The position numbers and the translations under genes were made by a program. 54,072 nt of DNA. It comes from a bacterium (lineage in GTDB: Bacteria > Patescibacteriota > Minisyncoccia > Phycocordibacterales > UBA12079). The stretch spans positions 1 to 54,072 of the forward strand of contig JAGYLJ010000004.1 in the NCBI GenBank assembly GCA_018401295.1. Direction: 5' to 3'. Below, in pieces: positions 1,914 to 54,072 of this stretch; position 1 is the first letter of the stretch; the number at the start of each line of letters is the position of its first letter. The notes under the pieces were generated by a model. That model saw only the letters and a list, made by a program, of their open reading frames with translations. It was not told the DNA's origin and searched no databases.

Positions 1914-1986
1914 TTTGGAGGGTGAGCGGGTTAGCAACCCCAGTGAAATATCATCTAAATTAAAAATTTAGATGGTTCAAATTCTG

Positions 1987-2045
1987 ACTAAAACATTTTT
2001 TTAAAAAAATGTTCGTCCGACCAAAACTTTGTTTTGATTTTAGGA
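1987..2045 (+). repeat. fourth, diverged copy of the 50-bp leader unit, between the adaptor and RND genes
   Basis: ACTAAAACAT...TGTTCGTCCGA...TTTTGATTTTAGG keeps the outer closure and linker of the 131-230 units. Both internal hairpins differ in sequence but still pair. Confidence 0.8.
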
Positions 2046-2066
2046 GGAATTTGAATTTCACGGGGT

Positions 2067-2105
2067 AATATTTTACTAATTCGCTTCGCTCATAAGAAAA
2101 ATATT
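2067..2105 (+). promoter_or_regulatory. leader hairpin abutting the start codon (copy 1 of the GAGCGAAGCGAA-loop hairpin, seen here as its complement)
   Basis: AATATTTTACT / AGAAAAATATT arms around AATTCGCTTCGCTCATA. ATG follows directly. Near-identical to 7845-7883 and 40697-40735. Confidence 0.7.
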
Positions 2106-5100
2106 ATGGAAAAATTTTGGATTTTTTTTATAAAGAAAAAAAGCTTTACGATATTGTTAATTACATCCTTGATTCTTTCTGGTGTTTTTTCATTGGTAAA
2201 TATTACAAAAGAATCAGCCCCTGAGATACAAATTCCGTTGGCAATTGTTTCAACATTTTTGCCTGGATCTTCAGCGTTGGACACAGAAAGATTGATTACT
2301 AATAAGATTGAAGATCAATTAATTAATAATTTAGATTCTCTAAATAAGATCACATCTACTTCAGGGGAAGGGTTTTCTTCTATTGTTGCTGAATTTAATG
2401 CCGATGCTGATATTCAATTGTCTATCCAAAAGGTAAAAGACGAAGTAGATAAAGTGAAGTTTGAGTTACCCTCTGAAGCAGAAGATCCTGTTATTTCAGA
2501 TATAAACTTTGCCGATCAACCTATCTTGATGTTATCTATTTCTAGTGATTTACCAGCCACTGAATTCATTAAATTATCTGAAGATGTGAAGGATGGATTA
2601 AAATCTATCAGTGGTGTTTCAAAGATAAATTTAAGTGGAATTTCTGAGAGGGAAGTTCAAGTGATTGCTAATCAATCAGCGTTATCTAAATTTAATTTAT
2701 CAATTTCTGATCTAGTTAGTGCTATTTCTCAAGCCAATTCTTCTTTACCAATAGGTAATATAGAAATACAAGGGATTAAATATCCGTTAAAATTTAAAGG
2801 TGATGTTATTGACCCTGAAGAGATTAAAGATATTCCGGTTTCAAATATCGGCGGGCAAGTTATTTATGTTAGGGATTTAGCTTTCGTTTCCAACGGCGTA
2901 AGTCAAACATCTTCATTTTCTAGAGTGAGTGTAAATGGACAACCTTCTCAACAGGCTGTTTCATTATCGGTTTTCAAAAAAAGAGGTAGTGATATTACTG
3001 GTATTGTGAATAAGGTGAAAGCAGAGCTAAAAAGTATGCAGGAGGGTGGGATTCTAGAGGGGACTGATGTATTGATTTCAATAGACATGGCTGAGTATCT
3101 GAATGATGATTTGAAGAATTTGTCCATGTCTGGTTTAGCAACTGTTTTATTGGTTACCTTAATTTTATTTTTTGCCATCGGTTGGAGGGAAGCTTTAATT
3201 GCCGGTTTGGCCGTACCCCTTTCATTTTTAGTAGCTTTTTCTGGATTATATTTTACTGGCAATACTCTTAATTTTATTTCATTGTTTGCTTTGATTTTAG
3301 CTGTGGGAATTTTAGTTGATTCCGCTATTGTGGTGACTGAAGCGATGCACGTCAAAATAAAACAGGGAATGAGTGGAAATGATTCAGCTATCAATACTAT
3401 TAAAGAATTTTATGTTCCGCTAACTTCTGGGATGTTGACCACCGTAGCTGCTTTTTTCCCTTTGTTTTTCTTATCTGGGATAATGGGGGCATTTGTTAAA
3501 GGTATTCCCTATACTTTAATTTTCGTTTTGTTTGCTTCTTTGTTTGTGGCTTTAGGGATAGTGCCTTTGATTGCTTTGGTTGTTCTAAAAAGAAATGGGA
3601 ACAGCAATGGTAAATTGTTTCAAAAACAGAAAAAGTATAATGAATTGTTGAGAGAATGGTATAGAGGTAAATTAGAATATATTTTGAGTAACAAAAAATT
3701 TCAGAAAGGTTTTTTGTGGCTGATGGCGGCGGCTTTAATTTTTTCCTTTGTCTTACCTATTTCCGGTTTATTAAAAACAGCATTATTTCCTCTGGAAGAT
3801 TCAAAATTTATTTATATAGATGTGGAGACGTTGCAGGGGACGGTCTTGGCTGAAACAGATTTAGCTGTGAGAGCTGTGGAAGAAATTCTATATGAACAAC
3901 CTTATATTGAGTCTTTTGCTACTTCGGTGGGTTCTTCTAACGTTTTTAGCAATTCAGGAAGTGGTTCTGGCGAAAAACTTGGGAATATTACTGTCATTTT
4001 AAAAAAGGAGAGAGATAAGGGTAGTTTGGAATTGATAGAGGATTTAAGAGTTGAGTTAGCTGGTATAAAAATGGCTAAGGTAACTGTGGCTCAACCAAGT
4101 AACGGTCCTCCTTCTGGAGCTCCTGTTTTGATAAAGTTTTTTGGAGAAAACTTAGATGATTTGGAGAAGGTGGTAATTAAAGCTGAGGATATTCTGAAAA
4201 ATATTCCTGGAACAGTTGATACGACCAATAGTATGAAGGATAATATCACTGAATTTGTTTTGAAAATAAATAGATCTAAATTAACAGAGAATAATTTGTC
4301 ACCTGTTAGAGTGGCTTCAATTTTGAGAACTGCTGTTTATGGGGTGGATGCTACTACTATCAAAACAGGAGGTGAAGATATCGATGTTTTAGTTAAATTA
4401 AATCTTAATACAGATAGCGTTGATCCAAATTTAACTTCTAGAACGACAGTTGATTCAATTAGACAGATGGAAATTAACACACCTAGCGGAGTTGTTTTGT
4501 TGGGTTCTTTGGTGGATGTTACCATCCAGAAAAATAACGCCTCTATTAGCCATGAGGAAGGCGAAAGGATCGCCACTGTGTCAGCTCAATTGAAGAAGGG
4601 GGCTAATGCTGTTGAAATTAATGGAGCATTTCAATCTGAGATGAAGAAAGATCAAACATTTCTTCCTGAGGGAATTTCCTTGAAAACAGGTGGTGAAAAT
4701 GAAGATATTGCGAAGACATTTACAGAGATGCTAATGGCCTTGGTGGCTGGCTTATTGTTGGTGATTGTTGTTTTGATATTACAGTTTAATTCCTATCGTC
4801 AGACTTTCTTTATTGTGGTAGGAGTGTTGATGTCTTTAATTGGTGTTTTGTTTGGTTTGACGATTATTGGGAGTACTTTTTCGTTTCCTTCTTTTATTGG
4901 GGTGATAGCTTTGGCGGGGATTGTGGTGAATAACGCAATTATTTTGATTGATACTATGAATACTATGAGAAAAGAAAAGGTGGGGGTTAGTCTTAGAAAT
5001 ATTGTGATAGAATCTTCGGTTCTTCGTTTAAGACCGATTCTCTTAACCACTTTGACTACAGTTATTGGAATGGCTCCTTTGATTTTTGCTTCCGGTATGT

Positions 5101-7692: not shown

Positions 7693-7883
7693 GACCCATG
7701 TTAAATACCATTTGAGTTTTTAGAACTCAAATGCAAAAGATTTCAGTACTACGACTACTTTAGATTAAAGATCTTAATCTTTAGGTAAAGTCATGTTAGT
7801 GTAAGTTTAGTAGTCGGAGTACTGAAATCTTTTATTAACAGGGTAATATTTTTCTAATTCGCTTCGCTCATAAGAAAAATATT
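7693..7883 (+). promoter_or_regulatory. three-hairpin leader module shared with 40623-40735
   Basis: hairpin 7709-7733 (CATTTGAG..CTCAAATG) and long hairpin 7738-7759/7809-7830, then TTATTAACAGGGTAAT. Final hairpin 7845-7883 ends at the ATG. Confidence 0.7.
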
Positions 7884-8507
7884 ATGGATGACAAAGGAAT
7901 TTATTTAAAACCCAAACTTTGTGTTTCTGGTGCAGCTGACACAACTCATCTAACTCCCGATGCTGTTGTAAAAACAGAAATATTAGGAGAAGAAATTATT
8001 AAACAAGGTGGTATTTTGGTAACAGGGGCTACTACGGGGTTACCTCTCTGGGCGGCTAAAGGGGCTAAAAGTGTCGGAGGGATGTCCATTGGTTTTTCAC
8101 CAGCTTCCACTGAAGTTGAACATATTCATTCATATAAATTACCAACAGAACATATGGATTTAATCATCTATACTGGTTTTGGTTATCCAGGGAGAGATTT
8201 AATTTTAACTAGATCCGTTGATGCTGTCTTTATTACAGCAGGAAGAGTCGGTACAATCCATGAGTTTACCATTGCTTTCGAGGACGGTAAACCACTCGGC
8301 ATTTTGGAGGGAGATTGGGCTACTGACGAAATTATTCAGCTTATTATAGAAAAAGCCCATCGACCAAACGATAAAATTGTATTTGATTCTGATCCTAAAA
8401 GATTAGTTGAAAGAGTTTTAGAAATTGTAAAGGCAGATAAAGAGGAGGTTTATAAGAATTATAAGAAAACTATCCTAGAGGATCCTAGCGGTGGTAATAA
8501 AGAATAG
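7884..8507 (+). CDS. LOG/SLOG-type Rossmann-fold protein (TIGR00725/DprA-related-like)
   Basis: VTGATTGLPLWAAKGAKSVGGMSIGFSP and AGRVGTIHEF resemble the GGxxGxM..GA..GG..IG and PGGxGTxxE motifs of LOG-like proteins. Confidence 0.6.
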   Translation: MDDKGIYLKPKLCVSGAADTTHLTPDAVVKTEILGEEIIKQGGILVTGATTGLPLWAAKGAKSVGGMSIGFSPASTEVEHIHSYKLPTEHMDLIIYTGFGYPGRDLILTRSVDAVFITAGRVGTIHEFTIAFEDGKPLGILEGDWATDEIIQLIIEKAHRPNDKIVFDSDPKRLVERVLEIVKADKEEVYKNYKKTILEDPSGGNKE

Positions 8508-30127: not shown

Positions 30128-30478
30128 AATTAGTAGTTTGTTTAATGAATAAAAAGCACGAGAGACTAACTCGTGCTGTGAGAAGACTAATATCGACCTT
30201 GTCTTCATTAACTTAGTTTTAATTGTTTTGGATGTCGGGGGGGGAGTTGTTTGATTTAACATCCACCCATCAGAAAGAGATGTTAAGGTAACGGTATTAT
30301 CTGTGTCCGCGACTACTTTTTTGAAAAAGTTGGGGTTTTGAAAGAGAGGGACCTAAAAATTTTTCTCAAAAATTTTGAGGAAAATGGGCAGGTTGCGAGA
30401 TTAGATTAAACGGGATATTATTAAGATACAACTAAATATGACCTAACCCTTTTGAACTTCAAAAGGTATGGTTGAAAA

Positions 30479-30580
30479 ACACAAGCGAGATAAAAAACCT
30501 ATCATTAGGGCACTCGCTTGTGTTATACGGGGAAACCTGTATATGAGCTTCGGCTCTCCTAGTGGTAGGCTTTTTGTTTG
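30479..30580 (+). ncRNA. candidate ~100-nt structured small RNA or attenuator
   Basis: four consecutive hairpins. 30479-30523 is an 11-bp stem. 30524-30543 closes on a GAAA loop with a plus-strand-only G.U pair. 30545-30556 is GAGC-UUCG-GCUC. 30558-30569 is CCTA-GTGG-TAGG, followed by CTTTTTG. Confidence 0.4.
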
Positions 30581-40622: not shown

Positions 40623-40735
40623 ACCCATATTAAATATCATTTGAGTTTAAAAAACTCAAATGATTCAAATTTCTACGAAATTTGATTTAACAGGGTAATA
40701 TTTTTCTAATTCGCTTTGCTCATAAGAAAAATATT
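40623..40735 (+). promoter_or_regulatory. three-hairpin leader module (second full copy)
   Basis: hairpin 40638-40662 and hairpin 40666-40684, then ATTTAACAGGGTAAT (40685-40699). Hairpin 40697-40735 ends at ATG 40736. Confidence 0.7.
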
Positions 40736-41293
40736 ATGCAAACCAAACAAATTTTAAAGTGGCCGTTAATAATTGGGATTGTAGTTGTTCTCAATTTATT
40801 CTTTTTGTACGCGGTCAAAGTAGTTTATCCCACTCCAGAATATACTAATTTCTGTGAAGAAAAGCCTATTGTCAAAGATATAAATAATCAAGACGAATGC
40901 TTAACTGAGGGGGGACAATGGGTTGAGGATAATTATAGGTTAAAACCACCTGTTTCCCAGGTGATAAATGAAGAATTGGTGGTGACCGAGCCGAACGGTT
41001 ACTGCAATCAGCGATTTACTTGTAGTCAAGAATATCAGACGGCTCGAGAGGATTATGAAAGAAATGTTTTTATTGCTTTGATTATTTTTGGAGTTATTTC
41101 GGTAGTGATTGGTTTCGCAACTATGGGTAAAGAAGTTATTTCAGTTGCCATGTCTCTTGGTGGAGTTTTATCTTTTATTATCGCTTCTGTTCGTTATTGG
41201 CAATATGCCAGTGATTGGTTGCATTTAGGGATATTAGGATTAGGTTTGGCTGTTCTAATATATCTTGGGATAAAAAAGTTCACTGATAATTAA
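40736..41293 (+). CDS. hypothetical membrane protein (N-terminal TM, Cys-containing ectodomain, 3 C-terminal TM)
   Basis: hydrophobicity pattern only. Confidence 0.6.
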   Translation: MQTKQILKWPLIIGIVVVLNLFFLYAVKVVYPTPEYTNFCEEKPIVKDINNQDECLTEGGQWVEDNYRLKPPVSQVINEELVVTEPNGYCNQRFTCSQEYQTAREDYERNVFIALIIFGVISVVIGFATMGKEVISVAMSLGGVLSFIIASVRYWQYASDWLHLGILGLGLAVLIYLGIKKFTDN

Positions 41294-50386: not shown

Positions 50387-50709
50387 GGTGAGGGGCCAGT
50401 AGCCCCTCACCCAGAACCTTTATATTATGTTCTTTGTTTATATTTTAAAAAGTAAAAAAGATAACAGTATTTATATAGGTTATACAAGTGATTTGAAAAG
50501 GCGTTTTGAAGAACATAACGGTGGAAAAAATAAGTCTACCAAATTCAAGGTTCCTTTTGAGCTCATTTATTATGAAGCTTACAGATCTGAATCTGATGCC
50601 AAATATAGGGAGTCAAATTTGAAAAGATTTGCTCAGGCATATTCTGCTCTCAAGGGTAGAATTAAAAATAGTTTGGCATCATAAAGGTTCTGGGTGAGGG
50701 GCCAGTAGC
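50387..50709 (+). mobile_element. GIY-YIG gene cassette with 21-bp perfect terminal inverted repeats and a 17-bp direct duplication of the tRNA-Ala 5' junction
   Basis: IR CCCCTCACCCAGAACCTTTAT (50403-50423) / ATAAAGGTTCTGGGTGAGGGG (50681-50701). DR GGTGAGGGGCCAGTAGC at 50387-50403 and 50693-50709. Confidence 0.6.
50427..50684 (+). CDS. GIY-YIG nuclease family protein
   Basis: FFVYILKSKKDNSIYIGYTSDLKRRFEEHN...AKYRESNLK. Confidence 0.85.
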   Translation: MFFVYILKSKKDNSIYIGYTSDLKRRFEEHNGGKNKSTKFKVPFELIYYEAYRSESDAKYRESNLKRFAQAYSALKGRIKNSLAS

Positions 50710-50771
50710 TCACCTGGTAGAGCGCCGCACTTGCACTGCGGAGGTAGCGGGTTCGAGTCCTGTCTGGTCCA
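50699..50771 (+). tRNA. tRNA-Ala (anticodon UGC), no encoded CCA
   Basis: cloverleaf folded by hand: acceptor GGGCCAG/CTGGTCC with G3:U70, D arm GCTC/GAGC, anticodon stem CCGCA/TGCGG with loop CTTGCAC, T arm GCGGG-TTCGAGT-CCTGT (two G.U), discriminator A. Confidence 0.9.
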
Positions 50772-50778
50772 CAAAAAC

Positions 50779-50816
50779 ACAAAAGAACGCGAAAGCGTTC
50801 TTTTGTTTTGTTTTTG
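50779..50816 (+). terminator. Rho-independent terminator after tRNA-Ala
   Basis: ACAAAAGAACGC-GAAA-GCGTTCTTTTGT followed by TTTGTTTTT. Confidence 0.8.
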
Positions 50817-50836
50817 TGGACCAGACAGGACTCGAA
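50817..50836 (-). repeat. perfect 20-bp inverted copy of the tRNA-Ala 3' end
   Basis: TGGACCAGACAGGACTCGAA is the reverse complement of 50752-50771. Confidence 0.9.
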
Positions 50837-50906
50837 ACGAAGGAGTATATTTTTTCATAATGTAATGGAGAAAAAATACGACTGAGCGGGGTCGAGAGTT
50901 CTTGGT

Positions 50907-50932
50907 ATTTTAGGAGCGAAGCGAACTAAAAT
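50907..50932 (+). repeat. hairpin with invariant GAGCGAAGCGAA loop (plus orientation)
   Basis: ATTTTAG-GAGCGAAGCGAA-CTAAAAT. Second plus-orientation copy ATTTT-GAGCGAAGCGAA-AAAAT at 52582-52603. Confidence 0.8.
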
Positions 50933-51033
50933 AGTTAGAACTGGTGACCGAGTCCTGAGATATGTAGAATTCTCGCTGGGGTCATTTAGTTGAAAGAGTA
51001 GAGATTTTTGGAGGAGGAGTGTAGAATTAAGAT

Positions 51034-51795
51034 ATGTTTACTCCTAAAACAAAAAGAATAGAAAAACTTGCTGAACTGTATCCTGAAATTATTTCAGATT
51101 TGGAATGTATTTTTGACAAACCAACGAACATTTATATTGATTGGCAGAACGTTATTCATTGGCAGAAAAAATTAAGGTGGAATTTTGATTTGAAAAGAAT
51201 AAAACGGTTTTTTGATTCTTTTGACAATATAAAAACAGTAAAAATATATACAGGAACATTGGAGGGGAATGACAAATCAGAACAAAATATTCCTGATTTA
51301 GAATCTTGGGGTTATGTTGTTATAACAAAGCCAGTTAAAAAGATGAAGTTATCCGTTGATACTTCCAGTGTCTCTGATAATTCCCCAACTTTGTTGCAAC
51401 AATTTATTAAAAAATCTCTGTTAGACACTTTAGATATTTCTACTATCATCTCTTTAAATAAAAAACTTTCAGAGTTAAACGAAAAAAATATTTTATTTTT
51501 AACAGAAGAAAAGTGTAATTTTGATGTTGAAATGGGGAGGGATCTGCTAAAAGATTTTGAGTTTAATGGGATAGAGAATTTTATTTTGTGGACGACTGAC
51601 AGTGATTTTGAAGACCCGATAAAACAAATTAGAGATGATGGTAAAAAAGCGATTATTTTTGCTTTCTCAGGTAAAGTTGCACCTGAATTAGATGGCACTG
51701 GAGTTTATGTTTTTGATATAAAGAAAATAAAAGAATTTGTGTGTTGGTCTAAGCATTTACCAAAGGATATAAAGGATAGAGTTGATGAGGTATAA
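51034..51795 (+). CDS. NYN/LabA-like (PIN-fold) domain protein
   Basis: NIYIDWQNV... and ILWTTDSDFEDPIKQIRDDGKKAIIF match the D.N ... SgDsDF.p....r..Gk.v pattern of NYN domains. Confidence 0.55.
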   Translation: MFTPKTKRIEKLAELYPEIISDLECIFDKPTNIYIDWQNVIHWQKKLRWNFDLKRIKRFFDSFDNIKTVKIYTGTLEGNDKSEQNIPDLESWGYVVITKPVKKMKLSVDTSSVSDNSPTLLQQFIKKSLLDTLDISTIISLNKKLSELNEKNILFLTEEKCNFDVEMGRDLLKDFEFNGIENFILWTTDSDFEDPIKQIRDDGKKAIIFAFSGKVAPELDGTGVYVFDIKKIKEFVCWSKHLPKDIKDRVDEV

Positions 51796-51925
51796 AATGC
51801 CAAAGGGACTCCGTGAGGAGCCCCTAAGCATTAGTGATTTTTAACCTTTCGGTTACAGTTAATACTATACAAATTGTTAACTAAAGTCAATAACGGTTGG
51901 GGATAGAGTATAATATAACAAAAAA

Positions 51926-52339
51926 ATGGATAAATATACATATGTTGGCGTTTACGCCTTGATTAAAAAAGACGATAAAATACTTTTGATTAAAAAATCG
52001 AGAGGTCCGTATCTTGGTAAATTGGATTTGCCTGGGGGTGGTTTTGAATTTGGTGAGACTCCTTTGGAAACTTTACATAGAGAAGTGAAAGAAGAGACAG
52101 GTTTGGTTGTTTTGGAGGAGAAACTATTAGATGTCGCATCTCAAAATACTACTTATATCAATACAAAAGGGGAAGAAAGAACCATTCATCATATTGGGAT
52201 AATTTATGATGTTGAAGTAGAAGCTGGTGTGGAATTAAAAGGTAATAGTGATGGAGAAGACTCTTTAGGTGCTAAGTGGGTAGAGATTTCTTCTTTGAAG
52301 AAAGAAGAGTTGTCGCCTTTTGCTGGGAAATTTTTGTAA
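51926..52339 (+). CDS. NUDIX hydrolase
   Basis: Nudix box GGGFEFGETPLETLHREVKEETGL. Confidence 0.9.
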   Translation: MDKYTYVGVYALIKKDDKILLIKKSRGPYLGKLDLPGGGFEFGETPLETLHREVKEETGLVVLEEKLLDVASQNTTYINTKGEERTIHHIGIIYDVEVEAGVELKGNSDGEDSLGAKWVEISSLKKEELSPFAGKFL

Positions 52340-52460
52340 AATCAAAAACAGGTAGGCGTAAACCCTTGACGATAGCATACATATCCTTACTTAACTGATA
52401 CCACTCGCTTAATTCCTGTATGATTCGGTTCCAGTCAAAACCAATGAGGTCCACCATAAT

Positions 52461-52496
52461 AAAAAATACCCAATTTTCAAATTGGGTATTTTTTAT
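52461..52496. terminator. bidirectional Rho-independent terminator
   Basis: AAAAAATACCCAATTT-TC-AAATTGGGTATTTTTT. Confidence 0.75.
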
Positions 52497-52504
52497 TATT
52501 TATG

Positions 52505-52665
52505 CATCTGTCAGGACTCGAACGGTGATAGTAAACAGTCCTGTGGACTGTTTACGAGCCGCGACCAGCAGTACTTAGTAGATTTTGAGCGAAGCGAAAA
52601 AATATACTTAGTAACTGCGGGTCGAGTCCTGTGATTTTGTAGGACCAGACAGGAATCGAATATCC
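52505..52665. repeat. cluster of tRNA-Ala T-arm/3'-end-derived fragments in both orientations plus a GAGCGAAGCGAA hairpin
   Basis: CAGGACTCGAAC (52512-23, minus sense). GCGGGTCGAGTCCTGT (52617-32, plus sense, 16 of 17 versus tRNA 50747-63). AGGACCAGACAGGAATCGAA (52641-60, minus sense). Confidence 0.75.
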
Positions 52666-52832
52666 GTGATTATTTTTAAGAGGGTATCTTAGGAAAATGG
52701 TTTTAACATTTTTAATATTGTAATGATATCTATTTTGTAACGGCATAGGATATATCGTTTAAAACATAGATAAAAAGTCGATTATGTACAATTTATTAAT
52801 AAACCGTAAAAATTAATCTCTAAATAAAAAAT

Positions 52833-54072
52833 ATGAGGAAATTTAATAGAAGTTCAATAGTAGTCGTGTCAGCTGTTTTCTTGATGTTTTCTGTTTTTTC
52901 AATCACTACGTTTGCGGCTGGTCCAGCAACGGTCAATCTTGGTTCAGCGGGTGATTTTGTTGTTTTGGCAAAGTCTGGAATTTCAACAACTGGAACAACC
53001 CTAATTACTGGAGATATTGGAGTAAGCCCAATTAACGCGGTTGCTATAACTGGTTTTGGGTTAACGATGGATACCTCAAGTACATTTTCAACGTCAGCCT
53101 TGGTAAATGGAAAAGTATACGCAGCTGATTACACAGCTCCTACTCCAACTAAAATGACCACAGCTATAAGCGATATGGAAACTGCTTATACAGATGCTGC
53201 TGGAAGAACAAGTCCTATTGAGACTGGATTAGGTGCCGGAGACATTGGTGGAATGACACTCGCTCCAGGGCTTTATAAATGGGGTACTAACGTGATAATT
53301 CCAACGGATGTTACTCTCTCTGGTGGTGCGAATGATGTTTGGATCTTTCAGATAGCACAAAATCTTACCATAAGTTCAGATATAGAAGTTGTCTTGAGTG
53401 GTGGTGCACAGGCTTCTAATATTTTCTGGCAGGTTGCTGGTCAAACAACGCTTGGGACAAACTCTGTCTTTAATGGAAATATATTGGATCAAACAGCAAT
53501 TGTGTTGAACACGGGGGCAACACTAAATGGTAGGGCCTTGGCGCAGACTGCAGTTACGCTTGACGCTGATATTGTCTCCCTTCCTGTTGTTTCCGTAACA
53601 ACTCCAGTTAACGGTTCTTGTTCTACTACTCACTACAGTTGTAACACCGGCACCAGTGTGAGTAACGTTGATGGTTCTACTACTTGGACTTGGTCTTGTA
53701 CAGGTTTAAATAGTGGTACCACCGCTTCATGTTCAGAAACAAAACCAGTGACAACTACTCCAGTTAATGGTTCTTGTTCTACTACCCACTACAGTTGTAA
53801 TACTGGCACCAGTGCGAGCAACGTTGATGGTTCTACTACTTGGACGTGGTCTTGTACAGGTTTAGATGGTGGTACCACTGCTTCATGTTCAGAAACAAAA
53901 CCAGTGACAACTACTCCAGTTAACGGTTCTTGTTCTACTACTCACTACAGTTGTAACACCGGCACCAGTGTGAGCAACGTTGATGGTTCTATTACTTGGA
54001 CTTGGTCTTGTACAGGTTTAAATAGTGGTACCACTGCTTCATGTTCAGAAACAAAACCAGTGACAACTACCC
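52833..54072 (+). CDS. secreted DUF3494/ice-binding-like beta-solenoid protein with C-terminal Cys-containing tandem repeats (3' partial)
   Basis: signal peptide MRKFNRSSIVVVSAVFLMFSVFSITTFA. LGSAGDFVVLAKSGISTTGTTLITGDIGVSP typical of DUF3494. The ORF runs off the window end. Confidence 0.75.
   Translation, partial: MRKFNRSSIVVVSAVFLMFSVFSITTFAAGPATVNLGSAGDFVVLAKSGISTTGTTLITGDIGVSPINAVAITGFGLTMDTSSTFSTSALVNGKVYAADYTAPTPTKMTTAISDMETAYTDAAGRTSPIETGLGAGDIGGMTLAPGLYKWGTNVIIPTDVTLSGGANDVWIFQIAQNLTISSDIEVVLSGGAQASNIFWQVAGQTTLGTNSVFNGNILDQTAIVLNTGATLNGRALAQTAVTLDADIVSLPVVSVTTPVNGSCSTTHYSCNTGTSVSNVDGSTTWTWSCTGLNSGTTASCSETKPVTTTPVNGSCSTTHYSCNTGTSASNVDGSTTWTWSCTGLDGGTTASCSETKPVTTTPVNGSCSTTHYSCNTGTSVSNVDGSITWTWSCTGLNSGTTASCSETKPVTTT
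53598..54072 (+). repeat. at least 3 near-identical tandem repeats of 156 bp (52 aa, 4 Cys each)
   Basis: units start at 53598 (153 bp), 53751, 53907 and 54063. Each encodes TTPVNGSCSTTHYSCNTGTS.SNVDGS.TWTWSCTGL.(S/G)GTTASCSETKPV. Confidence 0.9.

Follow-up and report, generated by a model that had tools for sequence, protein, structure and literature searches.

The motif and its two settings

The DNA examined here, referred to below as the window, is the 54,072-nucleotide (nt) contig JAGYLJ010000004.1 of assembly GCA_018401295.1, from a bacterium of the Patescibacteriota (Minisyncoccia; Phycocordibacterales; UBA12079). It corresponds to contig C22 of the genome that we designate G000, which is represented by 619 kb in 27 contigs and is 77% complete. 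The window carries hlyD-like and acrB-like genes near one end, a SLOG-family gene, a tRNA-Ala gene near the other end and five hairpins that are tipped by the 12-nt motif GAGCGAAGCGAA or a close variant of it. The motif is exact in four copies, two on either strand, and the fifth copy, on the minus strand, has a single mismatch (GAGCAAAGCGAA; Table 1). These five matches with at most one mismatch compare with an expectation of 0.04, none of 100 shuffled sequences reached this number, and the flanks of all five read as hairpin arms. An earlier note on this DNA had placed the motif at these sites, had described it as a hairpin-tip element containing the GCGAAGC mini-hairpin sequence and had assigned the two plus-sense copies to tRNA-Ala-derived modules. 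All of this is borne out, and the motif is over-represented: GCGAAGC is exact in four of the five copies, the fifth reading GCAAAGC, and the modules in question carry the 3'-end sequence of the tRNA-Ala gene.

Across the genome, the 9-mer core of the motif, GCGAAGCGA, occurs at 27 sites and within many different stems, about 1 site being expected from base composition. Fifteen of the 27 pass a strict hairpin test (at least 5 contiguous Watson-Crick pairs, with no mismatch, within 5 nt), as compared with 5.3% of 5000 random sites, and the other 12 are mostly recognizable by eye as hairpins with one mismatch or bulge. Near-identical copies of the elements described below are also found in sequences assigned to the Patescibacteria group, Candidatus Paceibacteria and Candidatus Saccharibacteria.

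The five hairpins of the window do not constitute one family. They belong to two different elements, to which we refer as class A (the three minus-sense copies) and class B (the two plus-sense copies). The earlier contention that the stems differ and nevertheless pair stands when all the genomic copies are taken together and falls for the minus-sense copies, whose identical stems do not represent independent covariation because they are copies of one longer repeat of 116-193 nt. For these three, the recently duplicated longer repeat that the note had named as grounds for refutation is what was found. Nor do the stems pair without exception, the copy at 2067-2105 having one mismatch, and the stems of the plus-sense copies are far longer than was supposed, about 20-27 bp. 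Our preferred reading, which we hold with moderate confidence, is that the 12 nt taken for a loop form a folded module at the apex of hairpins, and that these hairpins belong to two structured, non-coding elements, each present in multiple copies.

An element that ends on start codons

Read on the plus strand, each class A hairpin (2067-2105, 7845-7883 and 40697-40735) is P4, the hairpin at the 3' end of an element that measures 115-190 nt and contains a three-way junction with covarying helices. The consensus fold consists of the junction helices P1, P2 and P3, followed by P4 in the final ~45 nt of the repeat. Two more copies in G000 precede rplB (contig C27) and trpS (C12), and a covariance model, R1, built from the five copies of this genome matched 21 of 41 related genomes, among them 14 of the 18 in the same family, with 0-31 copies per genome; one genome of the same genus had none. 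When 24 of the R1 matches, drawn from 14 genomes, were aligned, pairing extended over 94.5% of the cells and 31 of the 47 pairs exhibited compensatory change, a level of pairing that none of 500 shuffles reached and that compares with no more than 51.5% in slid controls. The sequences and lengths of P2 and P3 vary freely, and P4 is nearly constant, with 8 of its 15 pairs invariant.

In every one of the 24 aligned copies, the 3' arm of P4 runs into a start codon (23 ATG and 1 CTG) of an open reading frame (ORF) of at least 48 amino acids, and in one P4 variant the 5' arm opens with CAT and pairs with the ATG itself. The downstream products, recognized by eye save for ORFs scanned with Pfam, include EF-Ts, NusA, MurG, the ribosomal proteins S12, L2, L10, S14, L19, L31 and L9, RNase III, TrpRS and an AcrB-family pump; the ORF that begins at 40736 of the window encodes 185 amino acids without a Pfam match. 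Some copies are intercistronic (hlyD-acrB, rplW-rplB and tyrS-trpS), and no Shine-Dalgarno sequence precedes the class A-led starts. Simpler functional assignments were considered and set aside. P4 was not called as an intrinsic terminator, the hairpin being followed by the ATG instead of a run of T residues. A consensus scan of two copies called no sigma-70-like site on the plus strand within the element, which speaks against a promoter carrier. A riboswitch or ribozyme was rejected, judging by eye, as the junction is almost devoid of conserved unpaired nucleotides and no hammerhead-type core was seen.

Class A is mobile, or at least gained and lost, because orthologous sites within the genus can be either filled or empty, and its positions are constrained to start codons. 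The element is present at the rplB site in G000 and its relatives G001 and G002 and missing there in G003; G000 and G001 have it at acrB, where G002, G003 and G006 lack it; and at the SLOG gene it occurs in G000 and G002 and not in G001, G003, G005 or G006. In comparisons of filled with empty sites the 3' junction always falls at the ATG, while the 5' junction is blurred; no clean target-site duplication was seen there, and the inverted repeats P1 and P4 are internal to the element. A secondary insertion separates the element from rplB in G001.

Several sequences in the vicinity of start codons deserve mention beside class A. A divergent copy in G000 (C8:758-879, R1 E=1.7e-10) has a final hairpin without the GCGAAGC loop that still pairs ATGAC with GTCAT at the start codon. 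A second shared leader occurs at C1:100300-100360 and C1:104500-104560, where a CCATCA(G/T)AGATGG hairpin is followed by TCGGGCA, AGAAAAAATAT and then directly by start codons. The sequence AGAAAAATAT(T)ATG seems to be a favoured context before starts in this lineage; it is present also at the empty SLOG site of G003. Finally, a small conserved hairpin, AATTAAAGTTCGCAATAGCTGA-AATTATTGC, lies upstream of rplB in G000 (C27 locus, ~330-365), G001, G002 and G003 irrespective of the presence of class A, and in a diverged version in G012.

Modules that trail tRNA genes

The class B hairpins (50907-50932 and 52582-52603) are the tips of a long hairpin, of 20-27 bp in the window, within modules of ~130-150 nt that are situated behind tRNA genes. 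Following the 3' end of the tRNA there are, in order, a terminator-like hairpin, an inverted copy of the tRNA end, hairpin 1, a junction with the conserved sequence GAG..GGGGTC, hairpin 2, which is long and bears the motif, and then GTGACC with a direct copy of the tRNA 3' end. The helix P1, on which the two hairpins sit, is formed by pairing of the inverted with the direct copy of the adjoining tRNA's own 3' end; modules A and B of the window are closed by CAGGACTC/GAGTCCTG, from the T-arm region of tRNA-Ala. The same layout recurs behind other tRNAs, each time with sequence drawn from the 3' end of that particular tRNA. Among 35 ARAGORN calls in G000 (4 of which are tandem tRNA-like units, an array that accounts for four of the direct-copy cases), 9 have part of their last 22 nt repeated in inverted form, and 15 in direct form, over 9 nt or more within the next 700 nt downstream. 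With a single exception, attributed by us to a converging neighbour, the motifs near these tRNAs share the strand of the tRNA.

A second covariance model, R2, built from 14 modules, matched 33 of the 41 related genomes, including all 18 of the family (6-32 copies in each of these 0.5-0.9-Mb genomes). Beyond the family, 14 out of 22 further families of the order had matches. We aligned 37 of the R2 matches, from 23 loci of relatives. A tRNA gene lies upstream on the same strand, within the 3-kb locus, for 31 of these modules, 19 of which begin 47-54 nt after it, and the tRNAs concerned include those for Tyr, Arg, Gln, Leu, Ser, Ala, Val, Asn, Glu and Gly. The alignment has 95.3% of its cells paired and compensatory change at 16 of 22 pairs; again none of 500 shuffles reached this pairing, and slid controls gave at most 53%.

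The modules are not recognized as tRNAs by tRNA finders: in the window ARAGORN called only tRNA-Ala, and the Rfam tRNA model hit only true tRNAs. Their tips are internal to longer hairpins and were not called as intrinsic terminators. A primer-binding-site reading of the inverted tRNA-end copy was rejected, as the copy continues into the genomic trailer and not into CCA. That P1 always copies the adjoining tRNA might be the outcome of concerted evolution of nearby repeats or of site-specific recombination at the tRNA end. At some tRNAs, the palindrome of tRNA end, terminator and inverted copy exists alone, without a module.

Examples of such module-free arrangements in G000 are tRNA-Gly (C4:1382-1530) and tRNA-Glu(CTC) (C21:18370-18520), where a terminator hairpin and the tRNA's own inverted 3' end make up palindromes of ~100 nt that lack the class B core. 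At C1:2285-2643, four tandem 89-bp units follow tRNA-Thr, each ending with the T-arm and acceptor 3' strand of that tRNA; ARAGORN calls these units tRNA-Ser(ACT). Expanded class B modules, with an inserted three-hairpin block ending in AGGAGG, are found at C12:87200-87402, C23:8212-8400, C23:23330-23500, C25:36600-36760 and C21:37690-37790, and the same block also stands behind a 5' fragment of tRNA-Phe.

Table 1. Positions of the class A and class B elements and of their parts in the window
Feature	Coordinates	Strand	Remarks
Class A element between hlyD-like and acrB-like genes	1937..2108	+	P1-P3 junction; P4 ~2064-2105; acrB-like ATG at 2106; motif 2080-2091 (-)
Class A element with expanded P3	7694..7886	+	P4 abuts ATG of SLOG-family gene at 7884; motif 7858-7869 (-)
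Class A element, best R1 match in the window (116.6 bits)	40623..40738	+	P4 abuts ATG at 40736; variant motif 40710-40721 (-)
tRNA-Ala(UGC) gene	50699..50772	+	3' end is the sequence copied into the modules
Bidirectional terminator-like hairpin with GCGAAAGC tip	50779..50806	+	separates the tRNA 3' end from the inverted copy
X', inverted copy of the final ~22 nt of tRNA-Ala	50815..50836	+	3' part forms the P1 5' strand (50826-50833)
Class B module A	50817..50968	+	R2 109.8 bits
Parts of module A	P1 50826-50833/50950-50957; hairpin 1 50838-50886; hairpin 2 50890-50949	+	
Motif-tip hairpin, top of hairpin 2 of module A	50907..50932	+	motif 50914-50925
Class B module B	52503..52642	+	R2 84.4 bits; motif 52587-52598
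Parts of module B	P1 52512-52519/52624-52631; hairpin 1 52523-52561; hairpin 2 52563-52623	+	P1 derived from tRNA-Ala

Structure of the twelve-nucleotide tip

The sequence of the 12 nt reads as tandem G.A pairs, a covarying 2-bp GC mini-stem and a GAA loop, so that the helix of the hairpin would continue through a purine-rich internal loop. This internal loop may consist of tandem sheared G.A pairs or have a GUA/GAA arrangement of the loop-E type. Seen as primary sequence, the motif is a direct repeat as well, (AGCGA)x2, and the GCGAAGC form is the commonest version of the tip in G000. Relatives have, among others, GCGATAGC, GCAAAGC, GCTTGC and GTACGAAGTAC. The class B tips conform to a pattern in which 5'-(G/U)A is followed by a mini-stem of 2-4 bp, a loop of 3-4 nt, the partner of the mini-stem and GA(A)-3', as in GAG-C-GAA-G-CGAA, GAGCGATAGCGAA, GAGCTTGCGAA, GAG-TAC-GAA-GTA-CGAA, GAG-TCC-ATA-GGA-CGAA and GTA-AC-GAA-GT-GAAG. 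One tip pair is C-G in 19, U-A in 13 and U-G in 3 sequences, and the same two tip pairs covary in class A as well (GC/GC, AC/GT and GT/AC). In the search for patterns among the relatives, the control for AGCGAAGCGA is uninformative, as this sequence is palindromic (the same backwards).

The loop is not invariant, contrary to the earlier note, and the selection on a displayed loop that the note deduced is not supported by these comparisons, since the tips vary across relatives with compensatory changes inside the tip, and the 12 nt are better read as a continuation of the helix whose mini-stem covaries and lengthens. A K-turn or K-loop, for which a 3-nt bulge 5' of the tandem G.A on the same strand and no bulge on the other strand were required, was rejected by inspection; in class B no bulge is present on the 5' side and an additional A follows the second GA, and in class A the spacer is a symmetric 3x3.

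At its centre, the motif has exactly the sequence GCGAAGC of the d(GCGNAGC)/d(GCGAAAGC) mini-hairpin of Hirao and co-workers, in which two G-C pairs close a GAA loop with a sheared G.A; according to a review (PMC13037366), d(GCGAAGC) is an exceptionally stable DNA structure, with a melting temperature of 76.5 C, and related DNA mini-hairpins are placed at the phage G4 priming site, ssiA and N4 promoters. Unlike the isolated DNA mini-hairpin, the motif caps long hairpins of repeats whose strand asymmetry suggests RNA, is flanked by an extra GA/GA(A) layer, and is substituted by other mini-stems in relatives.

Indications of strand and molecule

All 16 of the class B modules of G000 fold better in the tRNA sense, by 3-23 kcal/mol, and the tip pattern is present in 32 of 51 modules in the sense orientation versus 0 of 51 in the antisense (shuffles gave a mean of 6.0 and a maximum of 11). 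The ratio of G.U to A.C is 40:11 in the model pairs of class B, where one pair is G.U in 20 of 37 sequences, and 32:13 in the junction helices of class A in the gene sense, in alignments of relatives that are not independent of each other and that were fitted to models built in the assumed sense, which lean towards G.U over A.C. Such asymmetries favour RNA on the tRNA-sense strand for class B and favour the gene-sense strand for the junction helices of class A. The GC skew of the window is uniformly positive, yet the motif occurs on both of its strands; across the genome, 17 sites have it on the G-rich and 6 on the C-rich strand, and all four class A copies with an exact core are on the C-rich strand. 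The orientation of the motif therefore follows the transcription unit, by class, and not one replication strand.

A number of points weigh against an RNA interpretation, beginning with the non-independence of the relatives and the leaning of the models just mentioned. P4 of class A folds slightly better in the antisense (21 of 24 copies, by a mean of 2 kcal/mol) because only there do the conserved TC...TC flanks give tandem G.A, and its functional strand may be either. The RNA form of the mini-hairpin is far less stable than the DNA form, r(GCGAAAGC) melting at only 39 C as against 76.5 C (PMC13037366). There is no clear promoter before the class B modules, and the terminator-like hairpin between tRNA and module could stop co-transcription. 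The patchy copy number and insertion polymorphism fit selfish spread equally well. The RNA nature of the elements, together with their transcript ends and processing, is inferred from sequence.

Relation between the two classes

The P4 hairpin of class A and hairpin 1 of a class B subtype (B2) are built on one stem sequence, ATATTTTTCT / AGAAAAATAT, and carry the loop in opposite orientations. As the DNA hairpin is thus reversed in class A, the class A mRNA would exhibit the complementary, UC-rich loop, and in the assumed RNA senses P4 and B2 hairpin 1 are complementary over the loop and both arms. The leader of the gene that starts at 7884 and hairpin 1 of the C23 module have a predicted co-fold energy of -37.5 kcal/mol versus -20.3 kcal/mol when folded separately, and the duplex energy with shuffled partners is -15.6 +/- 3.0. 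This complementarity may represent an antisense relation or the plain inversion of one DNA hairpin.

If both elements act as RNA, class B might be made in the tRNA sense, with P1 imitating the stacked acceptor and T helix of a tRNA, so that the module could mature like a tRNA, through RNase P, processing of the 3' end and perhaps the addition of CCA; the purine-rich tip could then provide a structural knob of the sheared-G.A type for the docking of protein or RNA. Class A would act in cis within mRNA as a portable translational operator, P4 occluding the start codon and the loop receiving a factor, and the potential binders of its UC-rich loop would be the class B tips or a factor that both classes share. 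We regard as very doubtful, although worth stating, a further trans-acting layer in which modules matured in the manner of tRNAs would pair through their tips (by kissing followed by strand invasion) with the class A operator loops and so couple the translation of ribosomal proteins, translation factors and other gene products to the output of tRNA operons. Such a layer would resemble the kissing control of CopA/CopT and RNAI/RNAII in its complementary loops, with 10-12 nt between P4 in the mRNA sense and the class B tips. Unlike those systems, the partners here are unlinked repeats, and their complementarity follows automatically from hairpin inversion. Against this layer is the finding of class B without class A in G003, G007, G009 and G010; therefore, the tip does not exist primarily for pairing with class A. 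In G002, where the class A loops were compared with the class B tips for covariation, the stems of the two classes match less well, and both sets share the GCGAAGC and GCAAAGC forms, which does not discriminate between the models.

Alternative explanations

The elements might instead be selfish palindromic repeats without host function, akin to miniature inverted-repeat transposable elements (MITEs) or to REP DNA, whose hairpins matter at the DNA level for mobilization. We consider this unlikely, though it has to be taken seriously. Class A ranges from 0 to 31 copies among close relatives, with orthologous sites filled or empty; class B modules resemble other modules of the same genome more than those behind the same tRNA elsewhere, and tandem arrays occur (three units in C23); and P4 is the part most conserved in sequence, as the ends of transposons are. 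Selfish insertion does not readily explain why the 24 class A copies without exception coincide with start codons, all in the same orientation, when by a rough estimate about one-fifth of random intergenic insertions at an ATG would do so, or why class B, with its conserved G.U, is retained throughout the family and in most of the other families of the order that were covered. Linked transposase is also lacking: G001 has 0 Y1 hits for its 10 class A copies, and G007 has 6 hits and no copies.

On this explanation, the tip and stem shared by the two classes would derive from common descent, loop inversion and gene conversion. The common stem of P4 and B2 hairpin 1, with inverted loops, fits this, but free inversion would mix the loop orientations, which are in fact fixed by class.

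It seems quite improbable to us that the motif is a single-stranded DNA signal that marks sites for primase, an HUH (Y1) enzyme or another single-strand-binding protein in replication or transposition; the earlier note had held a single-stranded-DNA or protein-recognition role to be as plausible as an RNA one. Tandem G.A pairs in a Py-GA-Pu context are stable in DNA too, Y1_Tnp genes occur widely in the family (in 15 of 21 genomes), and the stability of d(GCGAAGC) and the situation of its kin at priming sites and promoters lend the idea some appeal. Against it stand the occurrence of the motif in both orientations under the uniform skew of the window, with sites on the G-rich and C-rich strands of the genome, and the sole Y1 gene of G000, which is flanked by another palindrome. 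Tips in the relatives often exchange GCGAAGC for GCTTGC or ACGAAGT with pairing kept, and the conserved G.U and the locking of class B to the tRNA strand fit RNA better. A single-strand or protein-recognition role is conceivable in either class, most readily in class A, at its start codons.

Equally improbable is a derivation of class B from relics or miniatures of integrative elements with tRNA 3' ends as their recombination sites, in which case the direct copies would be attachment cores and the hairpins arm-type DNA sites. In its favour, direct repeats of the tRNA 3' end bracket modules at both borders, C23 has tandem units, and in the window a 1.7-kb NYN-NUDIX segment is enclosed by tRNA-Ala and module A on one side and module B on the other. 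Against it, Pfam found no integrase domain in the ORFs at 50427-54071 (GIY-YIG, NYN, NUDIX and Ice_binding were found), the family carries 6-32 modules per 0.5-0.9-Mb genome, modules behind tRNAs of different identity have a conserved core in common, and attachment sites leave the inverted copy X' and the covarying, G.U-containing helices unexplained.

Comparison with known systems

Returning to the reading that we prefer, of two structured non-coding elements with a folded tip, we compared each class with known systems. Neither reached the gathering threshold of any family in Rfam 15, as judged from the window and from searches of seven loci in E-value mode, which gave no near-threshold match. 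The literature searched, whose coverage lacks most subscription journals and supplements, held no account of modules trailing tRNA genes, or of MITE-like repeats, in Patescibacteria. Both families appear to be undescribed. Structured repeats built around a known hairpin cap are of known kinds, and it is the tRNA-trailing modules that are most likely new in kind.

Correia/NEMIS, ERIC, BOX, RUP and REPIN are structured intergenic repeats or MITEs of bacteria, and class A is likewise short, multi-copy and strongly folded. It is also, like them, co-oriented and probably co-transcribed with neighbouring genes, variable in copy number and polymorphic in its sites. Unlike them, it always ends on a start codon and in one orientation (24 of 24), without terminal inverted repeats at its outer ends, a clear target-site duplication or a linked transposase. 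In the pairing of the start codon region and in its conserved loop, P4 is reminiscent of the MS2 replicase operator and of ribosomal-protein leaders, and many of the genes downstream encode ribosomal proteins or translation factors. Unlike those operators, class A, as a candidate operator, would be portable, standing before unrelated genes.

For class B, the nearest parallels are mascRNA, the tRNA-like domain of bacterial Y RNA and viral tRNA-like structures, in that P1 reproduces the helix of acceptor and T stem and, in the tandem units, is followed by the same trailer or terminator, as in tRNA-like minihelix mimics. Unlike those mimics, P1 copies specifically the adjoining tRNA, a two-hairpin junction replaces the T-loop, and ARAGORN and the Rfam tRNA model are silent. 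TIGR arrays (TIGR-Tas), as described in PMC12045711, consist of tandem units with two short variable spacers flanked by box C/D-like motifs next to a Nop-domain gene; on their architecture, the class B modules, which are 130-150 nt long, linked to tRNAs and without spacer bubbles, are not of this kind.

REP elements with RAYT (Y1) proteins share with the present elements the presence of short multi-copy palindromes in a genome that encodes a Y1 HUH protein. The link was rejected, however, as the Y1 gene of G000 is flanked by another palindrome, TTTGGTAATC-C/G-GATTACCAAA, the motif elements are not nearby, and Y1 counts do not follow class A counts in the relatives. This gene (C12:26561-27256, 231 amino acids, IS200-like/RAYT-like) has at least 8 copies of TTTGGTAATC(C/G)GATTACCAAA around it, one of them inside the ORF, and the combination looks like a REP/RAYT system unrelated to the motif.

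Implications for the Patescibacteria

Non-coding DNA has little space in the tiny genomes of the Patescibacteria, yet the 6-32 tRNA-linked modules have been kept across a family and much of its order, and some members of the lineage have up to 31 copies of an element positioned exactly on the start codons of core genes. Should the elements act as RNA, they would represent two undescribed RNA families, namely an RNA that mimics tRNA ends and a mobile translational operator, in a group for which regulation is almost unknown. Should they be selfish DNA, they would be the first well-defined MITE-like repeats found for the group in the literature searched, with an unusual start-codon target. In either case, they affect gene calling, operon models and assembly, several copies being located at contig ends.

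Other features of the window

The NYN-domain and NUDIX genes (51034-52339) that lie between tRNA-Ala with module A and module B form an island-like segment without an integrase. Directly after module B, an ORF with an Ice-binding-like domain (PF11999, E=2.2e-79) begins at 52833 on the plus strand and runs off the window at 54071. Besides tRNA, the only Rfam family that passes its threshold in the window is the LOOT RNA (RF03000), at 30440-30557 on the plus strand, with 77.1 bits versus a gathering score of 46.4.

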